Source: an uncultured Gammaproteobacteria bacterium (GTDB lineage Bacteria; Pseudomonadota; Gammaproteobacteria; Poriferisulfidales; GCA-002705445). Taken from it: 64,000 nucleotides of DNA. The notes under the pieces are model-generated. The model had not been told where the DNA came from. It ran no database searches and worked only from the letters and a program-made list of their open reading frames with translations. A program made the translations under genes and the position numbers. The stretch spans positions 564 through 64,563 of the forward strand of contig CAJXAV010000001.1 of NCBI GenBank assembly GCA_913050095.1, in the 5' to 3' direction. The number at the start of each line of letters is the position of its first letter. The first letter of the stretch is position 1. Positions 15,501 to 50,649 of this stretch are shown piece after piece.

Positions 15501-17651
15501 ATGAGCCTAGATTATAATCTTAATAACCTTAATGAAGCTCAAAGAGATGCAGTATGCAATTTATCTAAAAATTGTTTAGTGATAGCTGGGGCGGGCAGTG
15601 GTAAAACCAGAGTTTTAATTCAAAGAATATTATGGCTAATAGAAGATAACGATTATTCTCCATTCTCTATATTAGCTGTGACTTTTACAAATAAAGCAGC
15701 AAGAGAAATAAAAACAAGACTATCAGAAAACATTGATAATAATATTGATAGCATGTGGGTAGGAACATTTCATGGTATATGTTACAGAATATTAAGGGCA
15801 AATTATGAAAAAGCTAATCTAGTCAAAAATTTTCAGATTATCGATAGTGATGATCAGGTAAGAATCATCAAAAGAATTATGAAAGATAACGAGATTGATA
15901 ATTCTCAAGTTATTCCAAAACAAGTAGCTTGGTATATTAATAAAAAAAAGGATCAAAGTATTAGGAGTAATAAAACTAAAAACGATGACTTTATAAATAT
16001 TCAATATAATAAAATTTATAAAATATACGAAGAATATTGTAATAATAGTGGTCTTGTAGATTTTGGTGAAATTATTTTAAGAACTTTGGAATTACTAAAA
16101 AACAATGATGAGATAAGAGCGTATTACCATAGATTATTTAAATCTATATTAATCGACGAATTTCAAGATACAAATACAATTCAATATGATCTTATAAAAA
16201 TCTTAACAAGCACGGAAACCTCCATTTTTGCTGTTGGCGACGACGATCAATCTATTTATGGATGGAGAGGAGCTAAGGTTGAAAATATAAAAAAATTGCA
16301 GAAAGATTTTAAGAATACAAATGTATTTAGGCTTGAGCAGAATTATAGATCATCAGGAAATATATTAAATGCAGCTAATAGCATAATAATTAACAATAAT
16401 TCAAGAATGGGAAAAAATTTATGGACAGAGGATAAAAGTGGAGACTTAATAAAAATTTTCTCAGCTAGTGACGAAATTGATGAAGCAGCTTTTGTGGTTG
16501 AAACTATTGAGCAGCATATTTCTGAAAATTACAAGAGAAGTGAAGTAGCAATATTATATCGGTCAAATGCTCAATCTAGAATATTTGAGGAAAAATTCGT
16601 TTCCAAAGGTATCCCATATAAAATTTATGGCGGCTTTAGGTTCTTTGAAAGGGCCGAGATAAAAGATGTGATTGCTTATATGAGACTTGCTACGAGCAAC
16701 GATGACGACAACTCTTTTGAAAGAATTGTAAACACACCACCAAGAGGTATAGGAGAAAAAACAAAAAATTTATTAAGAGAATTTTCAAAAGAAAAAGAAA
16801 TATCTTTATTTAAATCTATACCGTTAGCATTAGAAGAATCAATTCTGAGTAAAAAAGCTGGAGAGTCATTATCAAAATTCTGCAATCTTATAAATATAAT
16901 ATCATCAATTTTAGAAAAAGATGATTTGCCGCATCAAATAAATGAAATAATCAAAGTTTCAAATATAAAGTCAATTTATGAAAAAAATAAAACTGAACAG
17001 TCAAGATCAAAATTAGAAAATTTAGATGAGTTAATTTCTGCTGCTCAGGAGTTTATTAATACTGATTTAGATCAAAATGAGACTATTATTGACGCCTTCT
17101 TAACGCATACATCATTAGAATCAGGAGAAGGACAAGGAAATGAATGGGATGAATGTATACAACTCATGACTCTGCATTCTTCAAAGGGTTTAGAATTTCC
17201 AATTGTTTTTTTGGTTGGGCTGGAAGAAAATTTATTTCCAAGTAGAATGTCAATTGAGGAAGATAATCTAGAAGAAGAAAGAAGACTCTGTTATGTTGGC
17301 ATTACTAGAGCAAGAAAAAAGCTGTATATTTCTCACGCTCAAATGAGAAGACAATATGGAACAGAAAATTATTGTATGCCATCAAGATTTTTAAATGAAA
17401 TTCCCGAAGAAGTTATTGAGGAAATTGGTTATAACCCAAAAAAAATATTTAAAAAAGAAAATTCTATGGTTTATAAAAATATTCGTAATGAAAATAGTAT
17501 AATGGGTAAAAGAGTTTTGCATAAAAAATTTGGAGAAGGGGTGGTGATTTCAACGGAAGGTTCTGATTCTAATACTAGAGTTCAAGTATCTTTTGATAAT
17601 TCAGGTTGCAAATGGCTAATTTTGGCTATAGCAAATTTGGAGATTATTTAA
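15501..17651 (+). CDS. uvrD: DNA helicase II UvrD
   Basis: 716 aa SF1 helicase (GAGSGKTRVL); the UvrD-type C-terminal Tudor-like tail (GKRVLHKKFGEGVVIS...) and position after xerC favour UvrD over Rep. Confidence 0.85.
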   Translation: MSLDYNLNNLNEAQRDAVCNLSKNCLVIAGAGSGKTRVLIQRILWLIEDNDYSPFSILAVTFTNKAAREIKTRLSENIDNNIDSMWVGTFHGICYRILRANYEKANLVKNFQIIDSDDQVRIIKRIMKDNEIDNSQVIPKQVAWYINKKKDQSIRSNKTKNDDFINIQYNKIYKIYEEYCNNSGLVDFGEIILRTLELLKNNDEIRAYYHRLFKSILIDEFQDTNTIQYDLIKILTSTETSIFAVGDDDQSIYGWRGAKVENIKKLQKDFKNTNVFRLEQNYRSSGNILNAANSIIINNNSRMGKNLWTEDKSGDLIKIFSASDEIDEAAFVVETIEQHISENYKRSEVAILYRSNAQSRIFEEKFVSKGIPYKIYGGFRFFERAEIKDVIAYMRLATSNDDDNSFERIVNTPPRGIGEKTKNLLREFSKEKEISLFKSIPLALEESILSKKAGESLSKFCNLINIISSILEKDDLPHQINEIIKVSNIKSIYEKNKTEQSRSKLENLDELISAAQEFINTDLDQNETIIDAFLTHTSLESGEGQGNEWDECIQLMTLHSSKGLEFPIVFLVGLEENLFPSRMSIEEDNLEEERRLCYVGITRARKKLYISHAQMRRQYGTENYCMPSRFLNEIPEEVIEEIGYNPKKIFKKENSMVYKNIRNENSIMGKRVLHKKFGEGVVISTEGSDSNTRVQVSFDNSGCKWLILAIANLEII

Positions 17652-27015: not shown

Positions 27016-27088
27016 GCGCTTATAGCTCAATTGGATAGAGCGTCAGCCTCCGGAGCTGAAGATATAGGTTTAACTCCTATTGAGCGCT
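27016..27088 (+). tRNA. tRNA-Arg (anticodon CCG)
   Basis: Manual cloverleaf fold: acceptor GCGCTTA/TGAGCGC (one G-U pair), D-arm GCTC-AATTGGATA-GAGC, anticodon arm TCAGC-CTCCGGA-GCTGA (anticodon CCG), 4-nt variable loop, T-arm ATAGG-TTTAACT-CCTAT. CCA is not encoded. Confidence 0.75.
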
Positions 27089-27128
27089 CAGTTAAAAATT
27101 TAGTATTTAATAAGAACAAGGAAAATTA

Positions 27129-44971: not shown

Positions 44972-46486
44972 ATGAAAATAAATTACATAAAAGAAATAAA
45001 TGAAAGCAATGTATACGATGTTGCAGAAAAAACACCATTGACATTGTTGACTAAAATTTCTACAAAATACGAGAATACTATTTATTTAAAAAGAGAGGAT
45101 TTACAGCCTATTTTTTCTTTCAAATGCCGTGGGGCATATAATAAAATTAGCAATCTTAATAAAACACAGATAGCTAAAGGAATAATAGCTGCATCAGCGG
45201 GTAATCATGCCCAAGGCGTTGCATTATCAGCCTCTAAATTAAATATTGATGCTAAAATTGTAATGCCAACAACAACACCATCTATAAAAATAGAATCTGT
45301 AAAAAAATTTGGTGTGCAAGTTGTCCTTTTTGGTGATTCTTTTGATGAGGCGTATGATTTTGCAGTAGAGGCCTCAAAAAAAGAAGAAAGGGTGTTCATC
45401 CATCCATTTGATGATCCATTGGTAATAGCAGGACAAGGCACAGTAGCAAAGGAAATAGTGGAGCAATCTAATGAGGAACCCGATATTTTTTTTATACCAG
45501 TTGGAGGTGGCGGCCTTATGTCAGGGATGTCGATTTACTTAAAAAAGTATTATCCAAATGCAAAAATATATGGAGTTGAGTCTGAGGATGCGCCAACTTT
45601 ACATACGTCCTTGGAGAATAATAAACCAACTAGCTTAGACCAAGTTGGGTTATTCGTTGATGGATGTGCGGTAAAAAGAATTGGTGATGAGACGTTCAAT
45701 ATATCTAAAAATTATGTCGACGGTGTGATATTAGTGTCAATTGATGAAACTTGCGCAGCTATAAAAGACATATATGAAGACACAAGAGTAATGTCTGAGC
45801 CAGCTGGAGCATTGTCGGTAGCAGGAATGAAAAAGTTTATTGTAAGCAACAATATAAAAAATAAAAAAATTGTGACTATAAACTCTGGTGCAAATCTTAA
45901 TTTTGATAGATTAAGGCATGTAACTGAAAGAGCAGAGATAGGAGAAGGTAGAGAAGTTTTGTTATCAGTTAAAATTCCTGAAAAATCTGGTAGCTTTAGG
46001 GAATTTTGTGAAGTAATAGGCAGAAGAAGTATTAGCGAGTTTAATTATAGATATGCTAGTAATAATTCAGCAAATGTTTTTGTAGGTATAAAGACTGATA
46101 ATATAGCCGAAGACACAAAAAAAATATCTAGCGACTTAAATAGTAAGAATTATGATTTTATAGACCTTACTAAAGACGAGGTTGCTAAATTACATTTAAG
46201 ATATATGGTGGGCGGGAAGCCAAACTCAAAAATTAATGAAAAACTATTTCGATTTGAGTTTCCTGAAAAACCTGGAGCATTATTAAATTTTTTAAATAAA
46301 ATGAAAAGTGATTGGAATATCACTTTATTTCATTACAGAAATCATGGTTCTGCATTTGGAAGGGTTCTCGTCGGAATTGATATTTTAGATTGTAGTGAGC
46401 ATGATTTAGGAGAATTTTTGACAGATTTAGGTTATAAGTTTACCGATGAGACGAATAACAAAGGATATTCATCTTTTTTGAAATAA
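44972..46486 (+). CDS. ilvA: threonine dehydratase, biosynthetic (with C-terminal ACT-like regulatory domains)
   Basis: 504 aa; PLP Lys motif (SFKCRGA), GGGGL glycine loop and two C-terminal regulatory domains. Confidence 0.9.
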   Translation: MKINYIKEINESNVYDVAEKTPLTLLTKISTKYENTIYLKREDLQPIFSFKCRGAYNKISNLNKTQIAKGIIAASAGNHAQGVALSASKLNIDAKIVMPTTTPSIKIESVKKFGVQVVLFGDSFDEAYDFAVEASKKEERVFIHPFDDPLVIAGQGTVAKEIVEQSNEEPDIFFIPVGGGGLMSGMSIYLKKYYPNAKIYGVESEDAPTLHTSLENNKPTSLDQVGLFVDGCAVKRIGDETFNISKNYVDGVILVSIDETCAAIKDIYEDTRVMSEPAGALSVAGMKKFIVSNNIKNKKIVTINSGANLNFDRLRHVTERAEIGEGREVLLSVKIPEKSGSFREFCEVIGRRSISEFNYRYASNNSANVFVGIKTDNIAEDTKKISSDLNSKNYDFIDLTKDEVAKLHLRYMVGGKPNSKINEKLFRFEFPEKPGALLNFLNKMKSDWNITLFHYRNHGSAFGRVLVGIDILDCSEHDLGEFLTDLGYKFTDETNNKGYSSFLK

Positions 46487-46492
46487 AAAAAA

Positions 46493-46508
46493 GGCCTCTT
46501 AAGAGGCC
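46493..46508. terminator. bidirectional rho-independent terminator (perfect palindrome)
   Basis: GGCCTCTT|AAGAGGCC flanked by A8 upstream and T3 downstream; it serves convergent ilvA (+) and the lysine-rich gene (-), and the T-run is stronger on the minus strand. Confidence 0.7.
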
Positions 46509-46531
46509 TTTAATATTGCTACCTAACGAAA

Positions 46532-46858
46532 CTATCTTTTCCTTCTTGTAGTTTTACGTTTAGCTACTTTCTTTTTAACTTTACGCTTAGCTACTTTCTT
46601 CTTCACTTTACGCTTAGTTACTTTCTTCTTCACTTTACGCTTAGTTACTTTTTTCTTCACTTTACGCTTAGTTACTTTTTTCTTTGCTGCTTTTCTTTTT
46701 GTTACTTTTTTCTTAGCTTTCTTTTTAACTTTACGCTTAGTTACTTTTTTCTTAGTTACTTTACGCTTAGTTACTTTCTTTTTAGCTGCTTTTCTTACAA
46801 CTTTTTTCTTTGCAGCTGACTTTCTTACTACCTTCTTCTTCTTTCGTTTAATGGCCAT
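46532..46858 (-). CDS. histone H1-like lysine-rich (poly-K) DNA-binding protein, repeats of KKKVTKRKV
   Basis: 108 aa, over 60% Lys/Arg with tandem 9-aa repeats; intact ORF with a strong GGAGG Shine-Dalgarno 7 nt upstream of the ATG; resembles AlgP, BpH1 and Hc1-type bacterial H1-like proteins. Confidence 0.65.
   Translation of the reverse strand: MAIKRKKKKVVRKSAAKKKVVRKAAKKKVTKRKVTKKKVTKRKVKKKAKKKVTKRKAAKKKVTKRKVKKKVTKRKVKKKVTKRKVKKKVAKRKVKKKVAKRKTTRRKR
46578..46790. repeat. 27-bp tandem coding repeats (unit about CACTTTACGCTTAGTTACTTTCTTCTT)
   Basis: At least five near-identical tandem copies visible within the lysine-rich gene, each encoding KKKVTKRKV. Confidence 0.8.
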
Positions 46859-47094
46859 TTAAATCCTCCAAAACACTTAAAAGTTGGTTATCAAATAAAA
46901 GTGTAATGATCTAAATACAAAATACAATCTTTTTTTTTATTTAAAAACATAACTTTTAAAGATTGTAGGTAAATACATTGAAAAAATATTTTTTTTTGTT
47001 GTTTTTACAAATATTTCTTAATATTTTATTTTAATTTTTCATTTTTAAAGCTTTTTTGTTAATTAATTAACTTATTTCTTGGTTTTTTAATAAA

Positions 47095-47225
47095 ATTTTT
47101 TAAGTTTTTAAGTTTTTTTTTAGTATTTTTTAAGTTTTTAAGTTTTTTTTTAGTATTTTTTAAGTTTTTTTTGTTTTTTTACAGTTATTTTAAGTTTTTT
47201 TTGTTTATTTTTTGTTTTTTTAGTC
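47095..47225. repeat. T-rich intergenic tandem repeats (perfect 30-bp duplication plus degenerate copies)
   Basis: 47101-47130 and 47131-47160 are identical (TAAGTTTTTAAGTTTTTTTTTAGTATTTTT), followed by two copies of TAAGTTTTTTTTGTTT...; these are phased A-tracts on the minus strand. Confidence 0.8.
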
Positions 47226-47294
47226 TTTTTATAAAAAAATTATGTTTTTTTGTTTTTTTTTATAAATTTTTAAATTTTAGATGATTTTGAAAGG

Positions 47295-47466
47295 AAAAAA
47301 CCGATGTACCGTTATTATTAATTTTCCTTGAACCGTTGAGTTCAGGTGGGTCTAAGTTTAAAACTTTAGGCTTCCTAAATAATAGGTTTGCACACCAGAT
47401 TTTAGTAACTTAATCCCTTTTAAAAAATTAGGAACAAAGATATAACAACAATATCGTGTACATCAG
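47295..47466 (-). ncRNA. ssrS: 6S RNA (ssrS)
   Basis: On the minus strand immediately downstream of zapA, the conserved ssrS position. The sequence contains GGAAGCCUAAAG and CACCUGAACUCAACGGUUCAAGG, matching E. coli 6S GAGAAGCCUUAAAAC and CACCUUGAACCAAGGGUUCAAGG. The 5' GAUGUAC...GUUGUUAU and 3' AUAAUAAC.GUACAUC ends pair as a closing stem, followed by a U-run. Confidence 0.65.
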
Positions 47467-47523
47467 TTCTTATTTGAATATATCAAATTAGTTCGTTATA
47501 GACCAGTGTATAAAATATGAAAA

Positions 47524-47826
47524 TTAATTTTGAATTAACAAGTCTAATTTTTGATTTAAATTAGAAATTTTTTGTTTCACTGAAGAATTCAATGTGTTTG
47601 TCATATCTTTATGATTTAATGAATCACTTGCGAAATTTAAAGCTGAGATTACAGCAATTCTATCAAGACCAATAGTTTTTCCTTCAGCTTTTGTCTTCAT
47701 CATTTTATCATTCAGTAGCTCGGCTGATTTCATCAAAGCATCTTTTTCATTACTGGCGCAGAAAACGTCATAGTTTTGATTAAGAATTTTAACTGTTACA
47801 GGGATTTTGTTACTTTCATTGTCCAT
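47524..47826 (-). CDS. zapA: cell division protein ZapA
   Basis: 100 aa; ZapA-like N-terminal sequence (VTVKILNQNYDV...) and conserved position upstream of ssrS and divergent from pepP. Confidence 0.8.
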   Translation of the reverse strand: MDNESNKIPVTVKILNQNYDVFCASNEKDALMKSAELLNDKMMKTKAEGKTIGLDRIAVISALNFASDSLNHKDMTNTLNSSVKQKISNLNQKLDLLIQN

Positions 47827-48059
47827 TACTGAGTGTACTCCAGCGATCTTAGTCTATTTATTATTCCTTCTACTTTTGTTTGAACTTTTTGATTTTTTTC
47901 TTTGATTTTGAATTTTTCAGACACTTCTTTTTCTTGTCTTTCTCTTAGAAGTTGATTTTCTTTCTTTAGTTCTAAATATTTGTTAGACAATATCTCTATT
48001 TTGCTTTCAAGTTCGTCTAGCTCTTTATTTAGTTCAGATATTATGTGATCATTATTCAT
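47826..48059 (-). CDS. coiled-coil protein of the TIGR02449 / ZapB-like family
   Basis: 77 aa all-coiled-coil (heptad Leu/Glu/Lys pattern) directly upstream of and overlapping zapA, as in Pseudomonas. Confidence 0.55.
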   Translation of the reverse strand: MNNDHIISELNKELDELESKIEILSNKYLELKKENQLLRERQEKEVSEKFKIKEKNQKVQTKVEGIINRLRSLEYTQ

Positions 48060-48143
48060 ATATTAGTTATATTATTCTTGCAGGCTTTGTAGGTCAATAG
48101 AAAATTACTAATTTATTTATATATAATTTTTTGACAAGTGAAT

Positions 48144-49445
48144 ATGAAATTATCAGAATTACAGAATAGAAGGCTAGCATTGATTAGTGAAATGCCAGAA
48201 AATTCTGTGGCTATATTATCATCTGCTAATAGAAATTATAGGACTAGAGATGTTGAAAATCCTTATAGGCAAGATAGTGATTTTTTATATATCAATGGTT
48301 TAAGCGAACCAAATCTTGTAAGTATTATTTATAAAGAAAACAATGAACCAAAAACAGTTCTATTTCGCGATAATACATCTGAACATGAGAAAATATGGGA
48401 AGGAAACCGCCTGGATAACAATGATATAAAAAAGCTTTATGGTTTTAACGAAATTCTTAACTATAGCGATTATAAAAATAAAATTCTAAATTATCTGGAA
48501 AATAAAAATAGCTTGTATATAGAGCTTGGAATAAATTGTGAATTAGACGATATTATTCAAAAACAGGTTAAAAAATCTGGAAAAAATGATAGAAAAAAAT
48601 CTGTATTTCCAAAAAAAATTGTAGCATTACACTCAATAACCCACAATTTAAGATTAATAAAGAGTGATTATGAGATAAAAATGATAAAAGATGCAGTAAA
48701 TGTGTCAATCAATGGCCATAAAGAGGCAATGAAAAAGGCAAAACCTGGAATTTATGAATACGAATTAGATGCAGAAATAAAGTATATTTTTAATAAAAAT
48801 AATATGCATCATGCATATATGTCAATCGTTGGAAGTGGAAATAATGCGTGCACACTCCATTATATAAAAAATGATTGTTTACTTAAAGAAAACCAGTTGG
48901 TGTTAATTGATGCTGCTGCAGAGAATCAAGGATATGCATCGGATATCACAAGAACATTTCCTGTAGGTGGAAAATTCACAGAAAAGCAATCAAAAGTATA
49001 TGATGTAGTTTTAAAAGCCCAAGAAAAAACCATTGATTTTGTCAGACCAGGGGTTACTTGGGATGATGTACATCAAGTAACGGTTAATGAGATATCAATG
49101 GGTTTAATAGAGTTAGGTTTATTAAATGAAAGTATTGAAAAAGTTATTGAAGAAGAATTATATAAAGATTTTTTTATGCACAAGACAGGGCATTGGCTTG
49201 GCCTTGATGTACACGATGTTGGAGAATATGAAAATATTAAGTTTAAGCCCGGAATGATAATAACAGTCGAGCCTGGAATATACATTTCATCATTAAATAA
49301 AAAAATTCCAAAAGAATGGAGAGGTATAGGAGTTAGAATTGAAGATGATGTGTTGATAACTAAAAATGGAAATGAAGTATTAACATCTGGGCTTGCAAAA
49401 AAACGCTCCGAAATTGAATTATTGTGTGATATGAAAAATGGATAA
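48144..49445 (+). CDS. pepP: Xaa-Pro aminopeptidase
   Basis: M24B peptidase with metal ligands (DAAAE..., HGLGLDVHD, E-x-G); start placed at the ATG (MKLSELQNRRL), which aligns with the E. coli PepP N-terminus; the ORF-track start 48138 is a GTG. Confidence 0.9.
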   Translation: MKLSELQNRRLALISEMPENSVAILSSANRNYRTRDVENPYRQDSDFLYINGLSEPNLVSIIYKENNEPKTVLFRDNTSEHEKIWEGNRLDNNDIKKLYGFNEILNYSDYKNKILNYLENKNSLYIELGINCELDDIIQKQVKKSGKNDRKKSVFPKKIVALHSITHNLRLIKSDYEIKMIKDAVNVSINGHKEAMKKAKPGIYEYELDAEIKYIFNKNNMHHAYMSIVGSGNNACTLHYIKNDCLLKENQLVLIDAAAENQGYASDITRTFPVGGKFTEKQSKVYDVVLKAQEKTIDFVRPGVTWDDVHQVTVNEISMGLIELGLLNESIEKVIEEELYKDFFMHKTGHWLGLDVHDVGEYENIKFKPGMIITVEPGIYISSLNKKIPKEWRGIGVRIEDDVLITKNGNEVLTSGLAKKRSEIELLCDMKNG

Positions 49446-50649
49446 AGAAAAAGATAATATAATTATGATTGGGGCAGGCTTAACAGGATTAGCTTTTTGT
49501 AACTTATTAAAAAACACAAATTTAAATATATCCTTGGTAGATATGCAGCCAAAATCATTTTATAAAAAAATAGATAATAATAGATATATAGTATTATCAA
49601 ACACAAGCAAAATTATATTTGATAGTTTAGGTCTATGGAGCAAAATAAATACGCATTGTACAAAAGTAAAAAATATACATATTTCAAAAAAAAATATATT
49701 CGGTTCTACAATTGTAAAATCAAAAGACGAAAATTTAGATTCTCTTGGTTATCAAATCTCAATTAAAGAATTAATTAAAATTCTTTATGAAAATATTGAA
49801 AAAGAAAAAAATATTAAATTTATTCATGAAGCAAAAGTTATGAATGTAAAACAAAGTAATGGTGTTAAAGTAAAATATATCAAAAATTCAATAGAAAAAA
49901 TTATCACGTCAGATGCAGTAATTTTCTCGACCGGCTCATCAGAAGATATTATTAGTGAAATTTTTCTAGACAAAGTACAAAAAGATTACCAACAAAATGC
50001 AATTACATGTGAACTAGTATCTGACATATACAATTCAGAAACTGCATTTGAACGATTTACAAATAAAGGGATCATAGGATTAATACCTAGAAAAGAAAAT
50101 TCTTGGACATTAATATATTCAACAAATAAGGAAGAAACTGAATTAATCAATAAATTAGAAGAAACAGGCTTAAAAAATTATTTTCAAGATCTAATGGGTA
50201 AAAAATGCGGTAATATAAAAAATATCAAAAACATAAAGACTTATCCATTAAAAATGAAATATTATAAAAACTGTGCAAAGGATAACATGTGTCTCCTAGG
50301 TGATGCTGCCCATACATTACATCCTATAGCAGCACAAAGCTTTAATTTATCATTAAGAGATTGCACACAATTAACAGAAATAATAAAAAAATCAAATCTA
50401 AAAAATAAAGATAACTTTTCAGCAATATTTAAGGATTATTATGAAAAGAGAGAAAGAGAAGTGAATAGGCTACTAAAATTCACTGACTATCTCGCTTCTT
50501 TGATCCATGGCAAAGGTTTTTTTAGAAATAATCTTTTAGGAGTATCGTTTTTAATTATGGATATGAACAAATCTTTAAGGGTAAATGTGATTCGATACCT
50601 ATTAGGGGTGAATTTCTCACACTCGTTAATTTCAAATTTAAAAGAATAA
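49438..50649 (+). CDS. ubiH: FAD-dependent ubiquinone hydroxylase UbiH
   Basis: 403 aa; FAD-binding GxGxxG (IGAGLTGLA) and a UbiH/Coq6 family C-terminus; pepP-ubiH-ubiI synteny. Confidence 0.8.
   Translation: MDKEKDNIIMIGAGLTGLAFCNLLKNTNLNISLVDMQPKSFYKKIDNNRYIVLSNTSKIIFDSLGLWSKINTHCTKVKNIHISKKNIFGSTIVKSKDENLDSLGYQISIKELIKILYENIEKEKNIKFIHEAKVMNVKQSNGVKVKYIKNSIEKIITSDAVIFSTGSSEDIISEIFLDKVQKDYQQNAITCELVSDIYNSETAFERFTNKGIIGLIPRKENSWTLIYSTNKEETELINKLEETGLKNYFQDLMGKKCGNIKNIKNIKTYPLKMKYYKNCAKDNMCLLGDAAHTLHPIAAQSFNLSLRDCTQLTEIIKKSNLKNKDNFSAIFKDYYEKREREVNRLLKFTDYLASLIHGKGFFRNNLLGVSFLIMDMNKSLRVNVIRYLLGVNFSHSLISNLKE

Follow-up and report, generated by a model that had tools for sequence, protein, structure and literature searches.

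The ssrS gene of E. coli (b2911) encodes a 6S RNA of 183 nt, is transcribed from two promoters and yields transcripts that are processed by RNases. It occupies the locus ubiH-pepP-ygfB <> zapA-ssrS-fau, where fau (ygfA) is cotranscribed with ssrS (Chae et al. 2011, as cited in PMC7641849), and the 3' end of the RNA is ascribed to Rho-dependent termination and trimming in work cited in the same article. The family is well studied (Wassarman and Storz 2000 and later work, again as cited in PMC7641849). A wider survey has documented a ZapB->ZapA->SsrS->(FAU1)->EVE array in beta- and gammaproteobacteria, head-to-head with YgfB->PepP->UbiH (Bell et al., BMC Biol 2020, PMC7641849). In such neighbourhoods ssrS is nearly always present, often unannotated, and ilvA recurs nearby (PMC7641849). 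On 6S RNA in SAR86 our search of the literature yielded no relevant work.

We have analysed a 64-kb stretch of DNA (the window; 64,000 nt) from an uncultured gammaproteobacterium. The minus-strand segment 47472..47294 is best explained overall, at a probability of roughly 0.96, as ssrS, encoding a canonical 6S RNA of ~175-179 nt in an AT-rich, uncultured marine gammaproteobacterium. Sequence and structure place it in the 6S family, and the locus also shows compensatory changes in relatives, synteny and conservation of a promoter-like element. The gene is of a known kind and sits at its usual site, detectable by the standard Rfam model and annotation, and it was missed by metagenome gene-calling because only proteins were called there. 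The finding says nothing new on how 6S RNA works. Mildly unusual are the absence of fau and ygfB, a promoter that is apparently the gene's own, an ACTAGT-like motif, and the A-rich repeats and Lys-rich protein gene downstream. Its value is for annotation, in that the gap after zapA is not empty and holds the global transcription regulator 6S RNA, and for comparison, in that a very AT-rich, apparently streamlined genome retains 6S at its ancestral site yet drops the usual neighbours fau and ygfB.

The gap downstream of zapA

The genes of the locus are as follows.

47294..47472, minus strand: 6S RNA (ssrS) gene, from the RF00013 match, the minimum free energy (MFE) fold and covariation in relatives
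47524..47826, minus strand: zapA (Pfam PF05164 ZapA, E 1.7e-16; NCBIfam ZapA models)
47826..48059, minus strand: gene for a ZapB-like, TIGR02449-like coiled-coil protein (TIGR02449 E 2e-10, ZapB E 3.4e-4, both matches under the curated cut-offs)
48138..49445, plus strand: pepP, Xaa-Pro aminopeptidase (Pfam AMP_N and Peptidase_M24), divergent from zapA-ssrS
49438..50649, plus strand: gene for a ubiH-like flavoprotein (FAD_binding_3), following pepP
44972..46486: ilvA, further downstream of ssrS

A reading of this DNA made from the sequence alone had proposed an unannotated 6S RNA gene in a 665-bp gap after zapA that lacks any protein ORF, and had suggested a covariance-model search and a folding analysis. 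The gap is as described: from the zapA stop at 47524 to the start of the next ORF at 46858 it measures 665 bp and holds no ORF of at least 40 aa, the only ones being two spurious plus-strand frames of 37 and 25 aa in low-complexity sequence. When the whole 64-kb window was scanned against all 4227 Rfam families, RF00013 (6S/SsrS) matched 47472..47294 on the minus strand only, with 88.5 bits and an E-value of 3.6e-16. This score is nearly twice the gathering score of 46.4 bits. The match is full length, covering model positions 1-187 of 187, and carries a small bias term. No second 6S match was found within the 64-kb window, and a permissive Rfam search of 46400-48200 gave no credible match beyond 6S, its extras being sub-threshold matches on the terminator that follows the Lys-rich gene downstream and a single weak one, also below threshold, within zapA. 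The sequence-only reading had placed the gene at 47295-47466; the locus was right, and the covariance model moves the 5' end six bases further out, giving 47294-47472.

In comparison with E. coli 6S, the RNA belongs to the same RF00013 family and the same length class (179 versus 183 nt). About 45% of aligned positions are identical (79/179), at a far lower GC here (31% across the 6S region, in DNA of 28.9% GC). The blocks common to both genes are GGUGUGCA/GGUGAGCA, GGTG.GCA, AAGCC.UAAA and CACCU..GGUUCAAGG. Two 6S-like blocks had been quoted for the minus strand and both were found where they had been placed, GGAAGCCTAAAG at 47375..47364 and CACCTGAACTCAACGGTTCAAGG at 47348..47326. Their likeness to E. 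coli was borne out by alignment of CACCT..GGTTCAAGG and AAGCC.TAAA with the real E. coli ssrS sequence.

The 6S RNA starts ~51 nt past the zapA stop on the same strand, a context downstream of zapA that supports the assignment without strictly defining it. The gene order, ubiH-pepP <> zapB-like-zapA-ssrS, places the RNA at the same site after zapA as in E. coli and likewise divergent from pepP-ubiH. The zapA-ssrS linkage invoked in the first reading is real in E. coli and is documented across beta- and gammaproteobacteria (PMC7641849). Compared with the array of PMC7641849, the order of the ZapB-like gene, zapA and ssrS, the head-to-head pepP-ubiH and the nearby ilvA all match, whereas FAU1, EVE and YgfB are missing and are replaced by ~430 bp of A-rich repeats and a gene for a Lys-rich protein. 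In tblastn searches with the proteins of E. coli, which has both genes, and with those of a more distant Oceanospirillaceae locus, L006, neither fau (ygfA) nor ygfB was found at the locus or anywhere else in the 64-kb window (best E 0.39). Locus L006 itself retains the two genes, its Fau homologue being 39% identical to that of E. coli. Their absence from the window fits a streamlined genome (28.9% GC).

Fold and comparative structure of the RNA

The 179-nt RNA has an MFE of -49 kcal/mol (z = -5.6), and none of 200 dinucleotide shuffles was as stable. The reverse complement folds worse, at -34.5 kcal/mol. As the sequence-only reading had anticipated for 6S, the RNA forms an extended rod made up of a closing stem, a central bubble, and an internal stem capped by a CCUA/UAGG hairpin, seen in the MFE and centroid structures and in the consensus of eight sequences. 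The same rod, central bubble and apical stem make up the architecture of E. coli 6S. The parts of the RNA, numbered so that position 1 corresponds to window position 47472, are the following.

47448..47468, minus strand: 5' arm of the closing stem (RNA 5-25), pairing with 47318-47299; helix 1 of the comparative structure
47418..47430, minus strand: 5' side of the central bubble (U43-A55), UAAUUUUUUAAAA, single-stranded in the comparative structure
47374..47386, minus strand: apical hairpin CCUA-UUAUU-UAGG, which caps the internal stem, with two pairs doubly changed in relatives
47335..47347, minus strand: 3' strand of the central bubble (A126-C138), inside the conserved block CACCUGAAC..GGUUCAAGG
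47299..47318, minus strand: 3' arm of the closing stem (RNA 155-174); helix 1 of the comparative structure

In the closing stem, nucleotides 5-18 pair with 162-174 and 20-25 with 155-160, and the C162-G18 pair is invariant. A second helix joins 33-38 and 41-42 to 139-148. The central bubble, U43-A55 opposite A126-C138, has 13 nt on each strand, and the internal stem begins with G56-G58 paired to C123-C125. The block CACCUGAAC..GGUUCAAGG on the 3' side of the bubble is invariant in close relatives and common to E. coli. The apical hairpin had already been recognised in the sequence-only reading (CCTATTATTTAGG, 47386..47374), and it is present in both the MFE and the consensus structures. The closing stem had been recognised in part. 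Its GATGTAC (47464..47458) and GTACATC (47309..47303) arms exist, whereas the additional helix GUUGUUAU/AUAAUAAC was in the wrong register; that helix was rejected, as the MFE fold and covariation support pairing of U20-U25 with A155-A160 and of C162 with G18.

Comparison was made with 20 related loci from marine genomes and metagenomes that carry a full-length 6S. Seven were genome loci of marine gammaproteobacteria retrieved with PepP as a handle; all seven resemble the window in having a full-length 6S (66.8-98 bits) upstream of pepP and opposite to it in strand, with exactly one 6S match each. The other 13 came from metagenome contigs searched with the conserved 3'-bubble block, and every one gave a full-length 6S match, at 57-78 bits. 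Four loci were excluded: L007 and L008, labelled Deltaproteobacteria and Sandaracinus, with a PepP of 40% identity and no 6S match; L004, cut 372 nt upstream of pepP and likewise without a 6S match; and L011, a spurious Ruminococcus locus kept out of the 6S scan.

Across eight sequences, 19 of the 50 pairs are doubly changed yet still paired, and the count rises to 27 of 50 with 22 sequences (18 distinct, E. coli included). Standard pairs fill 92.9% of cells among the 18 distinct sequences, versus 31-48% when the partners are slid by 1-3 columns, and no column shuffle out of 500 reached any of the observed covariation measures. The tested structure was derived from the same sequences, which somewhat favours it; even so, the margin is wide, and 10 of the 19 pairs in the closing stem are doubly changed, with 97.7% of its cells paired. 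Two invariant G-U pairs (columns 8/177 and 36/152) would read as A-C on the other strand, and this fixes the transcribed strand. Four contigs from strains that share one and the same ZapA also agree fully in their 6S sequence (100% identity), while the adjoining spacer carries indels.

An alternative arrangement is predicted for the 3' strand of the bubble, which can form a local hairpin CCUGAAC/GUUCAAGG of -6.9 kcal/mol when folded alone. RNAalifold predicted this hairpin on the 22 sequences as well, in a fold where local hairpins replace the helices flanking the bubble. We did not take that fold as the main structure and preferred the canonical one because it has more compensated pairs and agrees with the Rfam model. 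The local 3' hairpin is read as a known alternative 6S conformation, which we take to be the counterpart of the rearranged form of E. coli 6S that arises on synthesis of product RNA (pRNA).

Transcription, proposed function and rival explanations

Three elements at or near the ends of the RNA bear on its transcription.

47502..47507, minus strand: ACTGGT, the local form of an ACTAGT-like motif, from alignments of upstream regions
47477..47485, minus strand: extended -10-like element TGATATATT (TGn + TATATT), from conservation upstream of the RNA
47295..47300, minus strand: U6 run directly after the closing stem, a candidate intrinsic termination site by its sequence

The element TGATATATT belongs to a block of 11 nt, TTTGATATATT, which stops 4 nt short of the Rfam start. 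This block is identical in 17 of 19 other close-relative loci and reads TTTGGTATATT in the remaining two; it lies 11-15 nt upstream of the Rfam start, in intergenic sequence that otherwise varies. Transcription is predicted to start at A47471, A47470 or G47469, 6-8 nt downstream of the -10 and no more than 3 bases from the 5' end of the model. Such conservation directly upstream suggests that the RNA has its own promoter, and that ssrS is probably transcribed from this extended -10 element, which lends indirect support to transcription of the 6S RNA itself. Just ahead of the RNA a simple sigma-70 promoter scan of 46400-48200 returned no site, so the support for this promoter comes from conservation and geometry. 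A good -35 hexamer is lacking, the position being held by TGGTCT in the window and TAGTTA in relatives. At this location, ~20 nt upstream of the -10, nearly all close relatives (L001-L025) keep a palindromic ACTAGT-like motif between variable flanks. The hexamer TAGTTA of the relatives would have a 17-nt spacer. The motif resembles TTGACA poorly and could be a site for a regulator. The single proximal, extended -10-like element conserved here differs from the two promoters of E. coli ssrS.

At the 3' end, the TTTTTT noted in the sequence-only reading is indeed present at 47300..47295; it had been given too much weight, being only partly conserved, since the 3' tails of relatives are pyrimidine-rich with a clean U-run in some only. 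The closing stem has a high AT content for a terminator of the intrinsic type, and a terminator scan of 46400-48200 did not call the stem and U-run. Intrinsic termination at this point is plausible, and the U-run after the closing stem contrasts with the Rho-dependent termination and trimming described for E. coli. The likely primary transcript would start at about 47471-47469 and end in or near the U-run at 47300-47295. Its length, 179 nt by the Rfam model and ~170-177 nt between these predicted ends, is that of a 6S RNA (~180 nt).

More tentatively, and with the odds somewhat against it, ssrS may form a self-contained unit in this streamlined marine lineage, with an extended -10 (TTTGATATATT), an ACTAGT-like element that is possibly regulator-bound and its own stem/U-run end, uncoupled from the fau and ygfB that are absent from the 64-kb window. 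If this were true, it would be a minimal 6S locus with little or no nuclease processing, unlike that of E. coli.

We infer expression, polymerase binding, pRNA synthesis and the positions of both RNA ends. By family membership, the long, mostly double-stranded rod would present a central bubble that imitates the melted DNA of an open promoter. Apparently transcribed from its own extended -10 promoter and possibly ended at the closing stem and U-run, with no fau following, the RNA would occupy the sigma-70 RNA polymerase holoenzyme and lower sigma-70-dependent transcription in slow growth. Once nucleotides return, the polymerase would use the 5' bubble strand as template for a short pRNA. This synthesis would refold the RNA, in part by forming the CCUGAAC/GUUCAAGG hairpin of the 3' strand, and would release the enzyme. 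The E. coli pRNA start, U44, aligns with A44 here, with U43 and U46 beside it. Because the aligned base is an A, the exact start is not transferable from E. coli, and the template start is predicted at about U43-U46 (47430-47427).

Three other explanations of the locus were weighed. Second 6S RNAs exist, as in the 6S-2 of Bacillus and the second 6S of Legionella, and the gene might accordingly be a diverged paralogue with the main ssrS elsewhere in the genome. In favour of this, the search covered 64 kb of the genome and the aligned pRNA start base differs from that of E. coli, but the locus is the ancestral, zapA-linked position of ssrS, the score against the general 6S model is high, and the loci of all seven relatives' genomes have one 6S match each, upstream of pepP. 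We regard a paralogue as very improbable. Still less credible is a structured 3' UTR or terminator that merely belongs to the zapA transcript and has no separate function. The RNA does begin only ~51 nt after the zapA stop on the same strand and does end in a stem and U-run; a terminator, however, needs no 179 nt matching every element of the 6S model, and such a reading leaves unexplained the conserved, unpaired bubble sequence common to E. coli, the 27 compensated pairs and the promoter-like element conserved in the stretch from zapA to the RNA.

Intergenic AT-rich DNA that matches by chance, or a 6S remnant that has decayed and lost its expression, might be suspected from the 31% GC of the region, the long AT-rich gap and the low-complexity repeats near it. 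The E-value of 3.6e-16 with its small bias term, the z of -5.6 against dinucleotide shuffles and the covariation effectively refute both forms of this idea, the least probable of the three. Purifying selection on pairing is apparent across 18 distinct sequences, and strains whose adjoining spacer has indels keep the RNA at 100% identity. The first assignment as 6S, made on both sequence and position, is in this way upheld by RF00013, the fold, synteny and the compensatory changes in relatives.

The A-rich spacer and other features of the window

Between the 6S RNA and the next ORF lies a tract of ~430 bp (about 46860-47290) that is extremely A-rich on the minus strand. Tandem repeats with periods of ~10 and ~30 occupy 47082-47232 (e.g. 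AAAAACTTAAAAAATACTAAAAAAAACTT), and the phasing of A-tracts at ~10 bp suggests that the DNA ahead of the Lys-rich gene is intrinsically bent. Between zapA and this ORF the gap measures 636, 665 or 725 bp among strains with identical ZapA and 6S, and relatives also have A-rich spacers, without conserved sequence. The Lys-rich ORF (46532-46858, minus strand) encodes 108 aa made up of nearly nothing but KKKVTKRKV-type repeats, with a histone-H1-like composition and a 27-nt repeat in the DNA; it matched no Pfam or NCBIfam family. Its position is conserved in relatives, with lengths of 108-128 aa. Downstream of it, at 46511..46490, lies a strong hairpin that resembles a terminator.

One of the related loci, L005 (JAYQIN010000002.1), lies on a 1.1-Mb contig labelled 'Thiothrix sp.', with a PepP 77% identical to that of the window. 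It has the same AT-rich order of zapA, 6S and Lys-rich protein as metagenome-assembled genomes of unclassified marine Gammaproteobacteria, and the 'Thiothrix' label looks doubtful.

Elsewhere in the window, RF03531 (n00280, 'C. difficile sRNA included into helicase gene') matched 17244-17343 on the plus strand with 67.6 bits against a gathering score of 65.2. The match falls wholly within a 716-aa UvrD/Rep-like helicase ORF (15501..17651), over the region of the conserved EERRLCYVGITRA motif, and almost certainly represents conservation of coding sequence, not an sRNA. A single tRNA-Arg(CCG) gene was identified at 27016-27089 on the plus strand by both Rfam and ARAGORN.
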